This document shows, piece by piece, positions 18,287 through 30,362 of a DNA stretch of 64,000 nucleotides (positions are counted from its first letter, which is position 1; each line of letters opens with the position of its first letter). This DNA comes from a virus (lineage: Duplodnaviria; Heunggongvirae; Uroviricota; Caudoviricetes), in the IMG/VR virus record IMGVR_UViG_2908567220_000002, positions 1-64,000 of that record; one strand, written 5' to 3'. The position numbers and the translations under genes were made by a program. A model generated the notes under the pieces. It searched no databases. It was not told the DNA's origin and saw only the letters and a list, made by a program, of their open reading frames with translations.

Positions 18287-19342
18287 TCACACCACCGACG
18301 CGCACAGGCACGCATTGACACGGGACGGGATGACAATCGGTGCCGACTGCATCATCAGGAAACGCTGTGCCGGATCCTGCTGATCCCACATTTTCGGGGC
18401 ATAGGCCATCTGGCCGTAATTAAACGCCGGATCCATGATACAGCCGAACGCGCAGGTCCCCATCAGGGCCGCCCCGGTCAGAATGACGTTGCCGTCATCC
18501 AGCATCGGTTTTTCGGTTCCGTCATCCGGATCGATGAACCAGTCGTTATACAGCCAGAGGTTGAAGTTCCCCCACCTGCCCTTGTACACCGCACCGGTGT
18601 TGATCTGCGTCCCCGGGTTCACCACGTTGCTGGTCGGGTTCAGGGCGGGCATGTTGATGGCGTTCTCACGAATGAAACTGTCGTTCATGAACGCTGTCCA
18701 GGCTGACGGCGTGAAAATCACCTCGGTCGGGTACGCACCGGATTTTTTCAGCATCAGCGTCGCCCACGCCTCAAGGCAGGAGGTCGGGATCGTGCTGCTT
18801 TCCTCAGAAGGCCAGACATCATCCCCGCTCAGTGTCACCGTCAGGTCGCTGTCACGACGAAAATCCACTTCCGTGGTCGGGTAGCCCTCACCGGCGATCG
18901 TCACCTTCGCGTACTGGAGCGCCTGTGCCGCCATCCATTCAAGACGACGGTTCAGCATGTTGATCTGGTCGGCCATCTCGTACTGGAGGTTCAGCATTGC
19001 ACGCTCTGCTGGCGTGTACTCACGCCCGCCCAGGCGTTCGCCGATCATACGGCGCACCGGACGAAGCAAATCGGGAACGCGCTTATCCTTGATGTAGGCC
19101 GGTCTGAAGGTGTTGGTCTGGTACGGCAGGGCCTCAACCATTGGTCCTTCCACCAGAGGGGAGCAGAACGGTGACATACGGCGTGCGCCCACTTCCACAT
19201 CAATGGCCACATACTCCGTATCGCTCAGCACGATATTCGGGAAAAAACTGTCCAGCAGCCAGTTCTGAGCCACAAACAGGTTCGGCACCACCTGCGCCAG
19301 AAACGCGGTGTCGTACAGCAGATTAAAGTCTTTTTCGCTCAT
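18287..19342 (-). CDS. Major capsid protein (lambda gpE family)
   Basis: 351 aa; recalled resemblance to lambda E (FRPAYIKDK vs FTPGYVKPK; C-terminal MMQSAPIVIP vs MIQSAPLMLL). Confidence 0.75.
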   Translation of the reverse strand: MSEKDFNLLYDTAFLAQVVPNLFVAQNWLLDSFFPNIVLSDTEYVAIDVEVGARRMSPFCSPLVEGPMVEALPYQTNTFRPAYIKDKRVPDLLRPVRRMIGERLGGREYTPAERAMLNLQYEMADQINMLNRRLEWMAAQALQYAKVTIAGEGYPTTEVDFRRDSDLTVTLSGDDVWPSEESSTIPTSCLEAWATLMLKKSGAYPTEVIFTPSAWTAFMNDSFIRENAINMPALNPTSNVVNPGTQINTGAVYKGRWGNFNLWLYNDWFIDPDDGTEKPMLDDGNVILTGAALMGTCAFGCIMDPAFNYGQMAYAPKMWDQQDPAQRFLMMQSAPIVIPSRVNACLCASVV

Positions 19343-19397: not shown

Positions 19398-19799
19398 TCA
19401 CGGTACCGTGACCGGATTGCGCAGAAAGATTTTCTCTTTCTCCAGCGCCACGCTCAGATCATCAATGTCCCAGCTTTCATCAAAAATCACCCGGTTTGCG
19501 TTGAACTCACCCATCAGGTAGACACCGGCCAGCACATCACCGGACGAGGCATCCGCCATGTCCGCCAGAATCGCCACCGGCGTTTCGCTGCCGTCCGTCA
19601 CGCCTGCCCCCTGCTTGCAGAGGGTGTACGCCCCACTTTCCGTCATGCGCCCCAGCACCGTACCGCGCTGATACACCTCGCCACCAGTGATGGTCACAGT
19701 TTTTGTGACCACCTGAAGCGGTCCGCACAGCAGCTGGTCCGGCTGGTATGCACCGGACCAGTAACCCGGTACCGACGGGTTGTTTCCGTATGTGCTCAT
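19398..19799 (-). CDS. Head decoration protein (lambda gpD-like)
   Basis: 133 aa, immediately upstream of the major capsid gene as in lambda D-E. Confidence 0.6.
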   Translation of the reverse strand: MSTYGNNPSVPGYWSGAYQPDQLLCGPLQVVTKTVTITGGEVYQRGTVLGRMTESGAYTLCKQGAGVTDGSETPVAILADMADASSGDVLAGVYLMGEFNANRVIFDESWDIDDLSVALEKEKIFLRNPVTVP

Positions 19800-20374
19800 T
19801 GCGCTTTACCTCCCGTCGCCTCGTTGTACAGTTTCATGGCGTGCTGTGCCATCGCGTGCGCCTCCGTCGGTGCAGGGCGGACATCACGTCCGGTTCCCGG
19901 CTGTGGTACATGCTGCATACGGGCAGTCAGTCCGCCTTTCTGGCCTGCGCCCCCTGCCACCGCCGCTTTCATCACGGCTCTGGCCTGTTTCACACTCATG
20001 CGGGTGTTGAAGGCCAGCTCTGCGGCAAGGGCCGGATTTTTCGCTGCATACGGCGTGGCGAAGATGGCTGCGCAGCGATGACGTTCGCTGGCGCGGGCCT
20101 TTTCTTCGTCATCGTCGTCTTCTGCGTTTTCATCGTCGTCGTTATCGTCATCATCCGCACGGGAGCGCGCCTTACGGCTTTCGCGGCGGTCATCGTCGTC
20201 ATCCGCCTGCCCGTCGTCGTTATCGTCGTCATCCGCACGGGAGCGCGCCTTACGGCTTTCGCGACGGTCCTCGTCATCCTCCGCATTCTCCCCGTCGCGT
20301 TTGTCCTCCGGATCGTCATCCATTCGCGAACGACCGCCCATGCCTACCAGGTGCATGAAAGAAAATTTACCCAT
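19796..20374 (-). CDS. Putative capsid scaffolding protein with highly acidic tandem repeats
   Basis: 192 aa between protease and decoration genes; 78-bp unit repeated twice (20151-20306) encoding RRESRKARSRADDDDNDD. Confidence 0.45.
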   Translation of the reverse strand: MGKFSFMHLVGMGGRSRMDDDPEDKRDGENAEDDEDRRESRKARSRADDDDNDDGQADDDDDRRESRKARSRADDDDNDDDENAEDDDDEEKARASERHRCAAIFATPYAAKNPALAAELAFNTRMSVKQARAVMKAAVAGGAGQKGGLTARMQHVPQPGTGRDVRPAPTEAHAMAQHAMKLYNEATGGKAQ

Positions 20375-21227
20375 TGTTTGCTGTCTCCTTTAACAGAAAA
20401 GAAAAGGCCTCATCCGGCGACATCACGTCGTCGGCAAGCCCTGCCTGCACCCCTTCGTCAGCCCGCAACGTCCGGGCCTCAAGTGCACGCACCGCATCCG
20501 CGCTGATGCCACGGTTGCGGGCAACGGTTTCGATAAAAAGCGTGCCTGCAGCGTCAGTGTCCGCCTGAAGTGCCGCCTGTGCCGCCTCACTCAGCGGACG
20601 CAGCGGACTGGTCTCCGCCTTCCGGCTGCCGCAGGTGATGATGGTCACGTTCAGCCCCTCATCCTTCATCTGGCGCGACATGTCACAGTGCACGTAGATG
20701 ACACCGACGGATCCCACGCCGCCCGTGCGGGGGACCAGGATCCGGTCGGCGGCGCTGGCAAGGGCATAGGCCGCCGAGTACGCCGACTCCGAGAGAATGG
20801 CGTGCACCGGTTTCTGCCCGCGACAGGCAAAAATCGTGTCCACCAGGTCAAAACACCCGGCCACTTCTCCGCCGGGTGAATCGATATCAAGACAGATGCC
20901 CTTCACATCAGGGTCGTTAAGCGCCGTCAGAAAATTTCGCCGGATGCCGTCATACCCCGTCATGCCGGAGTAAGGCCGTAGCGTCCCCAGTTTCTGTACC
21001 AGGGTGCCGTGCACGGGAATGATGGCGATCCCCTCCAGAATGTCGTACCCGCTTTCAGGGGCGGGACGGCAGAAATCGTCTTCATCATCGTCATACCAGG
21101 CCCCCGTTTTTATCCGGGTGATCCCGAGTCGTTCTGCCAGTGCCGTAACAATGATTTCCGCTTTTCGCGGATGAATGGCCAGCGGCGTGTTCAGCAGGCG
21201 CTGGCTTAACAGTGCAAGTTGATTCAT
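20367..21227 (-). CDS. Head maturation protease (S49/ClpP-like, lambda gpC family)
   Basis: 286 aa, downstream of portal; S49 peptidase-like motifs. Confidence 0.75.
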   Translation of the reverse strand: MNQLALLSQRLLNTPLAIHPRKAEIIVTALAERLGITRIKTGAWYDDDEDDFCRPAPESGYDILEGIAIIPVHGTLVQKLGTLRPYSGMTGYDGIRRNFLTALNDPDVKGICLDIDSPGGEVAGCFDLVDTIFACRGQKPVHAILSESAYSAAYALASAADRILVPRTGGVGSVGVIYVHCDMSRQMKDEGLNVTIITCGSRKAETSPLRPLSEAAQAALQADTDAAGTLFIETVARNRGISADAVRALEARTLRADEGVQAGLADDVMSPDEAFSFLLKETANNG

Positions 21228-22864
21228 GAAACATCAGGCTCCTTCGGCTCTGCCGGGTCACTGCCCGTCGGTGTGGGGGCAAACTGCTCTGCCTGAAACC
21301 AGGAAGGCGGTGTCAGGCCTCTTTCCTTAAAGGCCCGCTCTTCTCGCGCCCGCTGATCGAGAATGTCCTCGAAATCTTCCCCCACGTTCTCAGCCACTTC
21401 GATTTCCAGCGTGGACATGCCGGCCTCCATCGCCAGAATCGCCCCTTTTTTCTCCGCGACCGGATCCACCCAGCCACGCCCCGGTCCCATCCAGTGGGCA
21501 CGGGTGTAAGCGGCCCGCGCCGCCAGAAAATCCGGTGCGCCTGCAGGCAGCGGCAAATCCTCTTCTTCGTGCAGCTCTTCCAGAAACGCCGTCAGCACCG
21601 GCTGGGCAAAGCCAACCGCAAACTCATCACGACGGCGGGTCAGTGTTTTCCACGCCTCAAGGAGTGCCGCGCGGGCAGAGCTGTAGTTAACGTCCGACCA
21701 GTCCTGTGTCACCTGCTGGGTGGACAGACCCAGTGCAGCGGCAATATTCCTGAGCACCGTGCCCTCGAACTCCTTAAAGTTACTGACCGGGCGGGCGGCG
21801 CTCACGGCTTTTGGCTCTTCGCCGGGGAACGTGATGGGAATACGCACGCCCGACATCGAAATCCGGTTAGTATCGTGATACTTCATGCGCGCATCCTGGT
21901 AGCCATTAATCACCTCCGCGTCACTCATCAGATCTTCTGTCAGTTTCGGGTCATAGGGCGACGTGATGAAAAAACCGAACATGGCATTGATGATGGCGGC
22001 TTCCAGCTCCACCTGGTCGTACTTGATAAGCATTTTCAGACGCTGAACCACGGGATTGAGAATACCGACACCACGATGCTGGCCCGCACGGTCATGATCA
22101 AAGTCATGCACCACCACCGGCCTTCCCCACGACGTTTCACGCGGCACGCGTTCCCAGTGCATCGTGTCACTGCCGCTCCACCAGTCCCCCATGTGTGCGG
22201 ACCGGATGTGATAGGCTACCGGCACCCCGTCCGCGTCAATTTCCACACCGCCACGAATATGCGGCATGTCAAACGCATCGTTCGGGTTACTCAGCCGGTC
22301 GGGGTCAATCACCTGTACCACCGTACCGTAACGCCCGCGACCGGGGGCTATTCTGTCCGGTCGCCAGTGGATGACCGCCAGCGCATCGCCGTCGATCATC
22401 TTGTGGCGGAATGCCAGCCGGAAAAGCTGCGGCAGGGTCTGTCTGCGTTCAAGGTCGCAGTAACACCCGGCATCACTGGCCCAGTTGCGCCAGTGTGCCT
22501 CCACACAGCGCCCGTACTCATCCGCCCAGTCTGCATCAAATGCCCGGTTGCCGGTCATCTCTGCCAGCATCCGGTAGTCAGGCTTCATCCTCGGGCGAAA
22601 AACCACCCCCATGGCATTGTCCAGCAGACGGGTGATACTGCCATTCGCCCAGCCGTCATTGCGGACAAGGTCGCGCATTCTGGCAACCATACGGTTACGC
22701 CAGATATTCACTTCATTGTCCGGTGACCACAGTACCGGGTTCCAGCCCACCACCGAACCGTGCGAGAAACCGGCAGAGTCGTAGGGGATCCGCCCGCTGT
22801 CATTCAGTGCGCGTTTTTTTTCCGTCTGTTGCGGAAAAGGTCTGCCATTTTTATCGACTATCAT
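21224..22864 (-). CDS. Portal protein (lambda gpB family)
   Basis: 546 aa; between gpW-like and protease genes. Confidence 0.8.
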   Translation of the reverse strand: MIVDKNGRPFPQQTEKKRALNDSGRIPYDSAGFSHGSVVGWNPVLWSPDNEVNIWRNRMVARMRDLVRNDGWANGSITRLLDNAMGVVFRPRMKPDYRMLAEMTGNRAFDADWADEYGRCVEAHWRNWASDAGCYCDLERRQTLPQLFRLAFRHKMIDGDALAVIHWRPDRIAPGRGRYGTVVQVIDPDRLSNPNDAFDMPHIRGGVEIDADGVPVAYHIRSAHMGDWWSGSDTMHWERVPRETSWGRPVVVHDFDHDRAGQHRGVGILNPVVQRLKMLIKYDQVELEAAIINAMFGFFITSPYDPKLTEDLMSDAEVINGYQDARMKYHDTNRISMSGVRIPITFPGEEPKAVSAARPVSNFKEFEGTVLRNIAAALGLSTQQVTQDWSDVNYSSARAALLEAWKTLTRRRDEFAVGFAQPVLTAFLEELHEEEDLPLPAGAPDFLAARAAYTRAHWMGPGRGWVDPVAEKKGAILAMEAGMSTLEIEVAENVGEDFEDILDQRAREERAFKERGLTPPSWFQAEQFAPTPTGSDPAEPKEPDVS

Positions 22865-23124: not shown

Positions 23125-25100
23125 CGTCTCACTCCTGCAAGCCTCATATGCAGCGGTATTTTCTTACGGGGTGTCTCCGGTGCTTTTGCGCCCGGCATAC
23201 TTAAACTGATTTTTTCTTCCGGCTGCGCGGGAGGCGGCTCCATGAATGACAGATCCTGCGCCGCCCGTTCAGCCAGACGGTTCAGTTTCAGACCGTGATG
23301 CAGCAGCCCCTTCAGGGCCGCGTAACCGTACACCATGCAGTCCAGCGCCTCATTCGCCCGTCCGGCAGACAGCTCCCAGACACGGTACACCTGCCCGCCG
23401 TTCTCCTTACGCACCAGACGCTCAGAGAGCAGCTGACTGAAATAATGCAAATCCAGAAACGACGGAAAATGGATACAGCCTGCGGCAGGCGCGCCTGCCG
23501 GATCCGGCTCAATATGGAGCCGGTGCCTGATGTCGTCCTTCGCGGAGTTCACCCCCAGAATGACGGGGCGAAAGGATTTCCGGTTGCGGGAAGAAACACT
23601 GCGCGTCGGCCAGACGGGATTACGTTTGCCGCCAGCGGCGGACTCACCTTTTGTCGCCCAGATACGACGCCCGATACGCGCCTTCGAGAACTCATACACT
23701 TTGTTGGTGTGATGACCGCCCGAGTCATGGCAGACCGCCGAGAGCGTCAGCCCGAAACCGTCAGCCCGCCGCCAGACCTGCTTCAGATACGCATCAAGGC
23801 GCTCCCACGGCTCTTCTGTTTCAAGGTCACCAAAAATCACGTCATGCGCAATCACCCAGCATTCTTCGTTCATGCCCCAGCCGAGAACGGTGATTTCGAA
23901 GCGGTCATCCTGTGTATCCACCCCGGCGGTGAGCAGGAGCACGCCATACGGCACCTCCGCCCCCCAGACCTCAACGCGGGCGATCAGCCGCTGCTCACTC
24001 ATCGCAAACTCGCCTGCATCCTCGTAAGGCTCGCCCAGCGTGGTATTGATGAATGTCTGGCGCATCAGCGGATCGTCCTTCACCCTCAGCCATTCGGCGA
24101 CCAGATTCGGCCAGGAGGCATTTGAGTGCGGGCTGTAGCCCGTCCAGATATGAAAACCGGCATGCCCCCTGAATGGTGCACCGGCACGCCATTCGCCTTT
24201 TGCCAGCATCCCGGGCAGTTCACTGTGCACAATCACACAGCCGTGGTGACGGCACAGATAGTAAGCGGTCTCCGGCAGCCCGTTACCTTCGCTGTCCTTT
24301 TCCCACTTGATGCCGTAAGGGGTGCTTTTGCTGCCCCACTCCAGCACCTGATATTCACCGCAGTGAGGACAGGGCACGAAGTAGCGGCGCTGATCGCTTT
24401 CCAGCCAGGCTTTTTCAATACGGCTCACGCCTTTCACGGTTGGCGTTGAGCCGAGAACAATCTTGCGGTTCCAGAAGGTTTCGGAACGTTTTGTTCCCAG
24501 CGCAATCTGATCCCCTTCGGACCCTGCGCCCCCTGCCGGATACCCGTCCACCTCATCAAAAAGGATGATGCGGCATGTGATACGGCGAAAACCGCCGGGG
24601 GAGTTGGCCCCGACCAGCGTGAGGTTTGCGCCGTTGGAAAAGGTTTTGCGAAGAATGGTCTGGTTGCTGTTTTTTGCCTTCGGGTCGCCGCTGATGGCTG
24701 CCAGCACCGGCGTGTCGCGCAGCATCGGGGCAATTTCGGTTTTACTGTAGTCTTCGGCATCCTCCACCCTCGGCTGAACCACCAGGATGGGGGACGGATC
24801 ATGTGCCAGGTAATAGCCCACCACATGATCAAGAATTTTCGTGTATCCCACACGGGCTGATTTCATCACCGACACATACGTGACTGACGGGTCGGTGATG
24901 GCATCCATCATGCCGTCCTGATAGGGATAGGAGCGGAATTTCCCCGTCTGGGCACTGGTCTCACGGGACAGTACAGCGAAGGTGTTGGCCCACTGACTTA
25001 AGGATAATGGAGGCGGAGGCGCAAGATAACGCGGACACGAAAGCAGCGCATCCTCAAACTGTATCTCCGTGGGTTTCGCGCCTGTCAAATGCAAGTTCAT
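23121..25100 (-). CDS. Terminase large subunit (lambda gpA family)
   Basis: 659 aa; follows the Nu1-like gene with overlap. Confidence 0.8.
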   Translation of the reverse strand: MNLHLTGAKPTEIQFEDALLSCPRYLAPPPPLSLSQWANTFAVLSRETSAQTGKFRSYPYQDGMMDAITDPSVTYVSVMKSARVGYTKILDHVVGYYLAHDPSPILVVQPRVEDAEDYSKTEIAPMLRDTPVLAAISGDPKAKNSNQTILRKTFSNGANLTLVGANSPGGFRRITCRIILFDEVDGYPAGGAGSEGDQIALGTKRSETFWNRKIVLGSTPTVKGVSRIEKAWLESDQRRYFVPCPHCGEYQVLEWGSKSTPYGIKWEKDSEGNGLPETAYYLCRHHGCVIVHSELPGMLAKGEWRAGAPFRGHAGFHIWTGYSPHSNASWPNLVAEWLRVKDDPLMRQTFINTTLGEPYEDAGEFAMSEQRLIARVEVWGAEVPYGVLLLTAGVDTQDDRFEITVLGWGMNEECWVIAHDVIFGDLETEEPWERLDAYLKQVWRRADGFGLTLSAVCHDSGGHHTNKVYEFSKARIGRRIWATKGESAAGGKRNPVWPTRSVSSRNRKSFRPVILGVNSAKDDIRHRLHIEPDPAGAPAAGCIHFPSFLDLHYFSQLLSERLVRKENGGQVYRVWELSAGRANEALDCMVYGYAALKGLLHHGLKLNRLAERAAQDLSFMEPPPAQPEEKISLSMPGAKAPETPRKKIPLHMRLAGVRR

Positions 25101-25671
25101 TCAGCGCCTCGTAAATCAGTTCCTGCAATGCCGCCGTGAATCCCTGATCGTCTGTCATCCCCGCCAGCGCCCGCAGACGGGGACCATGTTCCGGCGCAAG
25201 GGCAACAAGGCGCGTCCTCACCCGGGTATACTCCGCCCCGACCCGCTCAATGATGGGTTTCCAGGGAAGCAGTGTTCCTTTCTTTTCGTCATACTCGAGT
25301 TTTGCCAGCAGCGCGAAGTAGTTCTCTTTCATGGTTCTGGCTTCATCGAGCGTCATCATGGCTCCGTGGCTGGCAATGAACTGTTCGACCCGTGCTTCTT
25401 TCGATACATCAGAGGAGTCATCGTACAGGGCAATGCTGTTACCTTCGTTGTTACCCGGAGTGTTACCTTCGGATGTTACCCTGTTACCTAAAGTGTTACC
25501 TTTTTGCTCATTTTTTATTCGGGTAACAGTTTTCCGGTAACGCCGGATCCGCTCGTTTGAGGCATCAACATCGATGTCCTCACCGTCCAGAACCAGCCAG
25601 CCACGGGCCTTCCACGCCGTTACCGTCTTGCGACTGACACCGTGAAGTTTTGCGAATTCCGCCTGATTCAT
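25054..25671 (-). CDS. Terminase small subunit (lambda Nu1-like)
   Basis: 205 aa; N-terminal HTH-like MNQAEFAKLHGVSRKTVTAWKARGW resembles the Nu1 N-terminus. Confidence 0.7.
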   Translation of the reverse strand: MNQAEFAKLHGVSRKTVTAWKARGWLVLDGEDIDVDASNERIRRYRKTVTRIKNEQKGNTLGNRVTSEGNTPGNNEGNSIALYDDSSDVSKEARVEQFIASHGAMMTLDEARTMKENYFALLAKLEYDEKKGTLLPWKPIIERVGAEYTRVRTRLVALAPEHGPRLRALAGMTDDQGFTAALQELIYEALNELAFDRRETHGDTV

Positions 25672-30041: not shown

Positions 30042-30116
<75 letters not shown>

Positions 30117-30119
30117 CAT

Positions 30120-30195
<76 letters not shown>

Positions 30196-30362
30196 CATTG
30201 GTTCCTCAGGTGTGGATGAGATGCCCGGATACATAAATTACCCTCCCTTGGAACCGACGAAGAATAATAATGAATTCCGCTCCTGTTTCAATACAAACAA
30301 TGTCAGGTATTTAAAACATAATTATACAATATTATAAAAATTAAAAAGTTCGCAAAAAAAAG

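Follow-up and report, generated by a model that had tools for sequence, protein, structure and literature searches.

What kind of protein is encoded by a gene that carries a 78-bp tandem repeat in a strongly acidic first half and lies among the head genes of an E. coli prophage? The gene is located in a 64,000-nucleotide stretch of a Caudoviricetes record (positions 1 to 64,000 of IMGVR_UViG_2908567220_000002, hereafter the window), and its product, WP_063079840.1, is labelled 'hypothetical protein' in RefSeq. The initial annotation left several identities side by side, ranging from a scaffold-like protein to a DNA-mimicking internal protein. Based on the analysis described below, the product is most likely a head-assembly scaffolding protein of the prophage and a free-standing relative of lambda Nu3. 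The features of the locus are listed in Table 1.

Table 1. Features of the scaffold candidate gene and of its head-module neighbours, in coordinates of the window.
Feature	Position	Strand	Basis
Whole gene, 192-aa stand-alone Nu3-type scaffolding protein candidate	19796..20374	-	ORF list
Conserved N-terminal peptide MGKFSFMHLVGMGGRSR, family motif S/K-F-x-F/A-H-L-x-G	20324..20374	-	Homologue conservation
Acidic, predicted-disordered region, aa 18-84, with two basic islands	20123..20323	-	Composition, AlphaFold
78-bp tandem duplication, both units	20129-20284	-	
Repeat unit 1, aa 31-56, AEDDEDRRESRKARSRADDDDNDDGQ	20207..20284	-	
Repeat unit 2, aa 57-82, ADDDDDRRESRKARSRADDDDNDDDE	20129..20206	-	
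Basic island 1, RRESRKARSRA	20234..20266	-	
Basic island 2, RRESRKARSRA	20156..20188	-	
Three-helix core (predicted), aa 85-141, ...EEKARASERHRCAAIF...LAAELAFNT...KQARAVMKAA	19952..20122	-	pLDDT, PHROG, hhalign, Foldseek
C-terminal linker with GLxARM motif and terminal amphipathic helix (predicted)	19799..19951	-	AlphaFold, hhalign
Terminal amphipathic helix (predicted), aa 171-187	19814-19864	-	AlphaFold pLDDT about 80
Lambda-family portal protein	21224..22864	-	Phage_portal_2 E 5e-99
Short S49 prohead protease (286 aa), upstream of the scaffold ORF	20367..21227	-	Peptidase_S49 E 7e-26
gpD-type head decoration protein, downstream of the scaffold ORF	19398..19799	-	HDPD E 1.6e-17
gpE-type major capsid protein, presumed scaffold binding partner	18287..19342	-	Phage_cap_E E 7.6e-58

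The presence of two tandem units, as claimed in the initial annotation, was confirmed using Tandem Repeats Finder, which placed the repeat at 20134..20284 with a period of 78 bp, 1.9 copies, 93% matches and a score of 267. The peptide RRESRKARSRADDDDNDD is identical in both units (aa 37-54 and aa 63-80), two synonymous changes being the sole differences between the copies of the 18-codon stretch that encodes it, and the remaining unit-to-unit differences are E-to-D, G-to-D and Q-to-E. A run of 35 nt is identical in unit 1 and unit 2. The best 73-nt self-match of the repeat was 68/73, at offset 78, while codon shuffles of the acidic region (n=500) gave a mean of 43.4 (sd 2.0) and a maximum of 53, with none reaching 68, suggesting that the GAC/GAT-rich composition does not explain the repeat. 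An overlapping plus-strand ORF (19748..20506, 252 aa, Val/Ile-rich) was set aside, since it mirrors the GAC/GAT codons on the opposite strand. Among 5,426 complete E. coli genomes, 8 contain the two-unit gene, with identities of 95.6-100%, and in all eight the two units vary only by single Asp codons. The repeat is therefore no assembly artefact, and the gene is not common either.

The share of Asp and Glu in the N-terminal half, previously given as about 40 percent, was found to be 41.7% over residues 1-96, reaching 54% over residues 18-91, in comparison with 5% over residues 97-192. The two halves have opposite net charges (-21 for residues 1-96 vs +8 for residues 97-192), and Lys/Arg residues make up 19% of the acidic half.

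The same-strand gene order is GpA-type large terminase, gpW, lambda-family portal, S49 peptidase, scaffold ORF, gpD-type and gpE-type genes, and Mu-type contractile tail genes come after this lambda-type head module in the prophage. The scaffold ATG, preceded by AAGGAG, overlaps the protease stop at ATGGGTAA (8-nt overlap, different frame), and the scaffold stop overlaps the start of the decoration gene (ATGA). As read from the sequence, the scaffold ORF is translationally coupled between the S49 protease and the gpD/gpE homologues. The window protease carries no Nu3-type C-terminal extension, its alignment to lambda gpC ending where the lambda linker begins. This gene order, with short proteases of 284-291 aa, is repeated around four distant homologues, found in a Serratia phage, in sequences named Paraburkholderia atlantica and Providencia rettgeri and in a metagenomic contig, in which the gap between the protease and scaffold genes is 2 to 74 nt. 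A protease-scaffold fusion by programmed frameshifting at ATGGGTAA was considered and rejected, given that no slippery site is evident and that the overlap is unconserved, as evidenced by these gaps. A motif seemingly common to the protease C-terminus (AFSFLL) and the scaffold N-terminus (KFSFMHL) was also discarded, because the protease of Serratia phage BZS1 has AFRKLF at this position.

Pairwise BLAST against lambda Nu3 was not significant (E 7.6), and profile methods were therefore relied on. The product matches phrog_6382 ('unknown function') over its full length, residues 4-190 aligning with positions 6-200 of the 201-position profile (E 2.4e-34), and residues 85-144 match phrog_17040 ('head maturation protease', E 1.7e-8). 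Lambda Nu3 matches the same two profiles, through residues 107-194 for phrog_17040 (E 1.6e-11) and residues 101-192 for phrog_6382 (E 3.8e-4). In addition, the C-terminal half matches positions 348-465 of phrog_53, the gpC-type protease family (E 1.3e-4), in which the S49 protease domain occupies positions 5-293, upstream of the scaffold-matching part. An hhalign comparison of the family core with Nu3 C-termini gave E 1e-4 and a probability of 58% over 71 columns with 30% identity, spanning the first core helix to the GLxARM/ALDRLM motif ('ALDRLM' on the Nu3 side); the Nu3-side profile came from a cleaner second alignment, the first having been discarded for its many frameshifted fragments. 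No Pfam or NCBIfam model was found for the family. The hits to Pfam CDC45 and Nop14 and to NCBIfam cobaltochelatase, RNase E and others were far below cut-offs, covered the acidic stretch only and were rejected as compositional. In these profile comparisons the C-terminal half is a remote but consistent homologue of the C-terminal scaffold domain of Nu3/gpC, which, along with the conserved gene position, bears out the scaffold-like, Nu3-like character initially proposed.

Structural modelling in AlphaFold2, using a 37-sequence family alignment from which the BZS1 sequence was left out, predicted no secondary structure for residues 1-84 (pLDDT 45-58), three helices within residues 85-141 (85-105, 114-123 and 128-141; pLDDT 92-96), and a short helix (149-153) and a terminal helix (171-187) with pLDDT of about 80. 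The top Foldseek match among predicted viral structures was a 119-aa 'prohead protease' from Salmonella phage 37 (E 3.8e-3, prob 1.00), an entry that is probably a Nu3-like fragment, and the best five include two proteins annotated as Peptidase S49, one of them matching over 54 columns with 1.1 Å rmsd. Searches for a solved structure of the candidate gave no PDB sequence match and no Foldseek PDB match below E 7, and the PDB search for lambda Nu3 was likewise empty. Across 38 diverse homologues, H8 and L9 of the N-terminal peptide are invariant and F6 and G11 nearly so, while the invariant residues of the core are E97, R100, C101, A102, I104, F105, A117, A118, L120, A121 and F122, together with R152 further downstream.

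Full-length megablast and tblastn searches against phage records returned nothing, probably owing to the low-complexity filter, and a search of 50,697 phage records with the C-terminal half alone gave Serratia phage BZS1 as the sole match (E 0.8). The protein concerned, p06 of vB_SspM_BZS1 (QNO00900.1, hypothetical protein, 199 aa), belongs to the same family as the candidate, as evidenced by its full-length match to phrog_6382 (E 3e-58), but is only about 39% identical to it in the C-terminal half. It is likewise encoded between a short S49 protease gene and a decoration gene, in a phage with a lambda-type head and a Mu-type tail, and has an acidic N-region with two basic islands (KEKGKKAKSRRAEE twice).

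A core-only query (residues 89-192, with almost no acidic residues) was then used against 1.84 billion cluster representatives, yielding 374 representatives at E ≤ 1e-3, the best 150 of which are all 81-276 aa in length. Among these best 150 of 374, 134 possess a recognisable core preceded by 40 residues or more; their N-regions span 52-181 aa, with medians of 35% Asp/Glu and -17 net charge, and 124 of the 134 display a FAHL-like motif within the first 30 aa. In a set of 119 homologues, the part preceding the core spans 65-146 aa and has a net charge of -11 to -30 (median -22), and the remainder of the protein has +5 to +13 (median +10); the candidate itself has -23 before the core and +10 in the rest. 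The family layout, as aligned, is thus an N-terminal peptide, a variable acidic array, an invariant core and a C-terminal helix. The initial view that the protein is atypical for a Nu3-like scaffold holds in comparison with lambda Nu3, but not within its own family, where an acidic N-region is the rule. Given that an acidic, repeat-bearing and length-variable N-region is normal across the family, the finding is real and fairly ordinary.

Whether the repeat is copy-number-variable, another suggestion of the initial annotation, was addressed by comparison of homologues, which are not uniform in having two copies. Of the close alleles from E. coli and E. marmotae, P0001-P0005 contain two units, as does the gene in the window. 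P0007-P0016 contain a single RRESRKARSRA island and differ in their linkers, several of these sequences coming from NCBI assemblies with contigs of up to 471 kb, and P0017 and P0018 carry a different short repeat. An exact 26-aa deletion, equal to one unit, is known in P0006 from one 1587-bp Logan contig (SRR31617781), and this one-unit allele was not relied on because that short contig is its only source and because of the 35-nt run common to both units. At the family level, the number of basic islands per protein varies between 0 and 6, two being the most frequent (67 of 119 homologues), and by a strict anchor the island is absent in 135 of 254 members. Independent tandem repeats were also detected at the DNA level, one of 96/48 bp with 96% matches in a metagenomic phage homologue and others of 45 and 27 bp in a homologue from a Paraburkholderia-derived contig, while P0377 has five consecutive G-K-K/R-G/S-R-R-A-D/E modules. 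In the BZS1 p06 gene, no DNA-level tandem repeat was detected and the islands are about 47 residues apart, so that they did not arise by the recent duplication in the candidate. At the sequence level, therefore, copy number is variable both across the family and among close alleles. The island consensus K-x-K-K-A-K-S-R-R-A-E/D-D-D-D is similar to the beginning of the core helix, K-K-G/A-R-R-A-E-R-x-R-C-A-A-I-F, so that the arrays seem to have arisen by repeated duplication of the boundary between an acidic run and the first helix.

Taken together, a Nu3 counterpart with an acidic arm and a freely drifting repeat is, as a whole, the explanation we regard as probable. It is carried by the profile-level homology to the Nu3 domain, the strict synteny, and the predicted division into a helical basic half and a disordered acidic half. 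It is likely that the basic (+10) helical C-terminal half would bind the inner face of the gpE-type shell and self-associate, nucleating and sizing the procapsid, while the acidic (-23) disordered N-terminal half would project into the cavity, as in the P22 scaffold. The P22 protein combines a disordered, highly acidic N-terminus with a basic domain for coat binding at its C-terminus, and its N-terminal 40 residues are disordered inside procapsids and needed for scaffold exit (bioRxiv 10.1101/539965). By the same reasoning, the acidic arm of the candidate may fill the interior, keep the scaffold soluble and favour release after the cut by the S49 protease and the entry of DNA. These roles of the acidic half, like that of the N-terminal peptide, are proposed by analogy only. 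The 78-bp repeat itself may be a fairly recent duplication, by slippage or unequal recombination, of one module consisting of an acidic run and a basic island. Since both the number of modules and the length of the array drift freely from one family member to another, the protein probably does not depend on a precise copy number.

A second reading, which we consider unlikely, keeps the protein as a scaffold and assigns specific work to the modules of the N-terminal half, which would then be more than a neutral spacer. In one form of it, the islands (K-K-A-K-S-R-R-A-E/D) would be recognition and cleavage sites of the S49 protease, allowing small acidic peptides to exit the shell; we know of no cleavage specificity for lambda-type S49 prohead proteases. 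In another, the blocks of basic island and acidic run would provide multivalent electrostatic self-association of the scaffold core. The pattern of conservation is what speaks for such work, since the island sequence is conserved while the surrounding acidic linkers vary: RRESRKARSRA is identical not only in both copies, which differ in synonymous positions only, but also across alleles of 87-98% identity, and the island consensus is recognisable across Enterobacterales and Burkholderiales. Furthermore, two islands are the commonest state, and a one-island E. coli lineage regained its second island by duplication. A consensus still recognisable in the basic islands hints at something beyond neutral drift. 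However, the family needs no fixed number of islands, as evidenced by the range of 0 to 6 and their absence from more than half of the members by the strict anchor, and the likeness of the islands to the first turns of the core helix suggests that they are perhaps by-products of duplication at the junction. In a third form, the FAHL N-peptide would tether the short protease, which is without a scaffold domain of its own, into the procapsid, in line with the absence from the prophage protease of the Nu3-type extension that gpC has in lambda and with the near universality of the peptide in the family. The combined claim of a distinct scaffold design, in which a variable array of acidic runs and K-K-x-R-R-A-E islands does specific work as cleavage sites or charge stickers and the FAHL peptide recruits the protease, appears slightly less likely again.

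The extreme negative charge of the first half could also suit a DNA-mimicking or protective internal protein of the Ocr, ArdA or T4 IP type, packaged and injected with the genome, for example to block restriction or DNA-binding defences, as the initial annotation had entertained. This we judge very improbable, as the acidic half is predicted to be disordered, with no folded phosphate-mimicking surface, and contains the basic islands, the C-terminal half is homologous to the Nu3 scaffold domain, and the gene is translationally coupled in a late head-assembly operon. Mass spectrometry of BZS1 virions identified 13 proteins, including p07 (decoration) and p08 (capsid), and p06 was not among them, although the gel-band method missed the portal and the protease too (PMC7556043). 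The absence of p06 from this list is weak evidence, in keeping with a scaffold rather than with a DNA mimic carried in the virion.

Hardly credible at all is the reading in which the repeat or the one-unit variant arose during assembly and the low-complexity ORF is not a real gene: the clean deletion of P0006 exists only on its one short contig, which, if Logan assembles with k=31, could be a collapsed repeat given the 35-nt run shared by the units, but the two-unit gene in eight complete chromosomes, the different linker sequences of P0007-P0016, which are thus not simple collapses, and the end-to-end conservation of the ORF, with its N- and C-terminal motifs, in hundreds of homologues have largely refuted it.

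The scaffold reading thus provides a reasoned function for a family that RefSeq calls 'hypothetical' and PHROGs list under 'unknown function', and that is found in the head module of many Enterobacterales and Burkholderiales prophages, with at least 374 cluster representatives. The protein is of a known kind, here in a split version with an acidic arm, and comes from a large unannotated family. It indicates that the lambda protease-scaffold pair exists in split form, which raises the question of how a protease without a scaffold domain enters the procapsid, the conserved N-terminal peptide being a candidate recruiter. Natural alleles with 0 to 6 charged modules also offer material for studying how much a disordered scaffold arm is affected by its length and charge. 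Current views of capsid assembly are not overturned, and the result would not surprise a specialist.

Among known systems, the T4 prohead core protein gp22 is an acidic, highly charged scaffold, cleaved by the prohead protease at numerous positions to give small peptides; its sequence family is unrelated, it is processed by a protease of a different family and it is likened to the candidate by description. P22 gp8 shares with the candidate its functional layout and charge polarity, namely an acidic disordered N-terminus and a basic helical C-terminus, but gives no sequence or fold match (PDB sequence, Foldseek), is longer, its numbering reaching 303, and has a shorter acidic part that is not repetitive. 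To our knowledge, P22 has no prohead protease and its scaffold is recycled, while the module of the candidate includes an S49 protease.

The closest comparison is with lambda. Its gpNu3 (201 aa) is similar in length to the 192-aa candidate and occupies the same slot of the head module (portal B, protease C, Nu3, D, E). Both proteins are largely non-globular, the lambda one being reportedly intrinsically disordered according to the title of one paper, and their C-terminal residues (about 100) are homologous at profile level, with ENSRIMGILNCEEAHGREEQARVLAETPGMTVKTARRILAAAP aligned to ERHRCAAIFATPYAAKNPALAAELAFNTRMSVKQARAVMKAAV. Lambda Nu3 is made from an internal in-frame start in gene C and therefore shares the C-terminal 201 residues of gpC, its N-terminus being the last ~60 residues of the S49 domain. 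The candidate, unlike lambda Nu3, is encoded by a separate gene in another frame and has its own conserved N-terminal peptide. The linkers also differ, since that of lambda is rich in Ser/Thr/Ala/Gln, in a protein with 13% Asp/Glu and a net charge of -10 overall, whereas that of the candidate is an array of 54% Asp/Glu with basic islands and a tandem duplication. Given that the alignment of the window protease to gpC stops at the linker, the lambda arrangement may be written as protease, linker and scaffold core in one frame, and that of the prophage as a protease followed by an N-terminal peptide, acidic array and scaffold core in two coupled genes.

Among the homologues of the 192-aa scaffold candidate, a 126-aa E. 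coli protein in NCBI (P0020) was found to be a frameshifted allele, in which reading passes beyond the second repeat unit into an alternative frame, that of ORF 19996..20319. It is likely that this allele derives either from a decayed prophage copy or from an indel within the GAC/GAT run. The Val/Ile-rich ORF on the opposite strand mirrors the GAC/GAT/GAA codons of the scaffold candidate and is almost certainly not a gene.

The 1474-aa ORF contains long tandem arrays of 81-bp and 243-bp units at 4086-6465 (TRF scores up to 864), encoding Cys/Leu-containing repeats of ~27 aa each with the pattern F..C.gLt.i..g.F..C, which resemble BspA-type leucine-rich repeats. Probably this ORF specifies a tail-fibre or host-range protein whose copy-number dynamics are its own. 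The gene in the small-terminase position carries the RefSeq name 'RNA polymerase subunit sigma-70', which is probably a misleading label for the small terminase. The two tRNA genes lie upstream of the lysis genes.

Coordinates of features in and around the scaffold candidate and elsewhere in the phage-derived sequence
Feature	Position	Strand	Remark
1474-aa ORF	3599..8023	-	downstream of tail genes
Antisense ORF, 252 aa, Val/Ile-rich	19748..20506	+	opposite the scaffold candidate
Cys101 codon of scaffold candidate	20072-20074	-	within core motif ERxRCAAIF
N-terminal peptide, K/S-F-x-F/A-H-L-x-G	20324-20374	-	conserved family-wide
Gene directly upstream of large terminase	approx. 25054..25671	-	from 16055-16672 of L001, a locus annotated in RefSeq
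tRNA-Gly(tcc) and tRNA-Thr(tgt), adjacent	30043-30196	-	inside phage-derived region

Within the scaffold family, His8 and Leu9 of the N-terminal peptide are invariant, and this peptide is a candidate docking element whose partner would be either the short S49 protease or else the portal. The cysteine of the core motif is likewise retained in 247 of the 254 members. Neither feature is shared by the lambda scaffolding protein Nu3, which has no equivalent of the N-terminal peptide and, unlike the family with its near-invariant Cys101, carries Ile at the aligned position.
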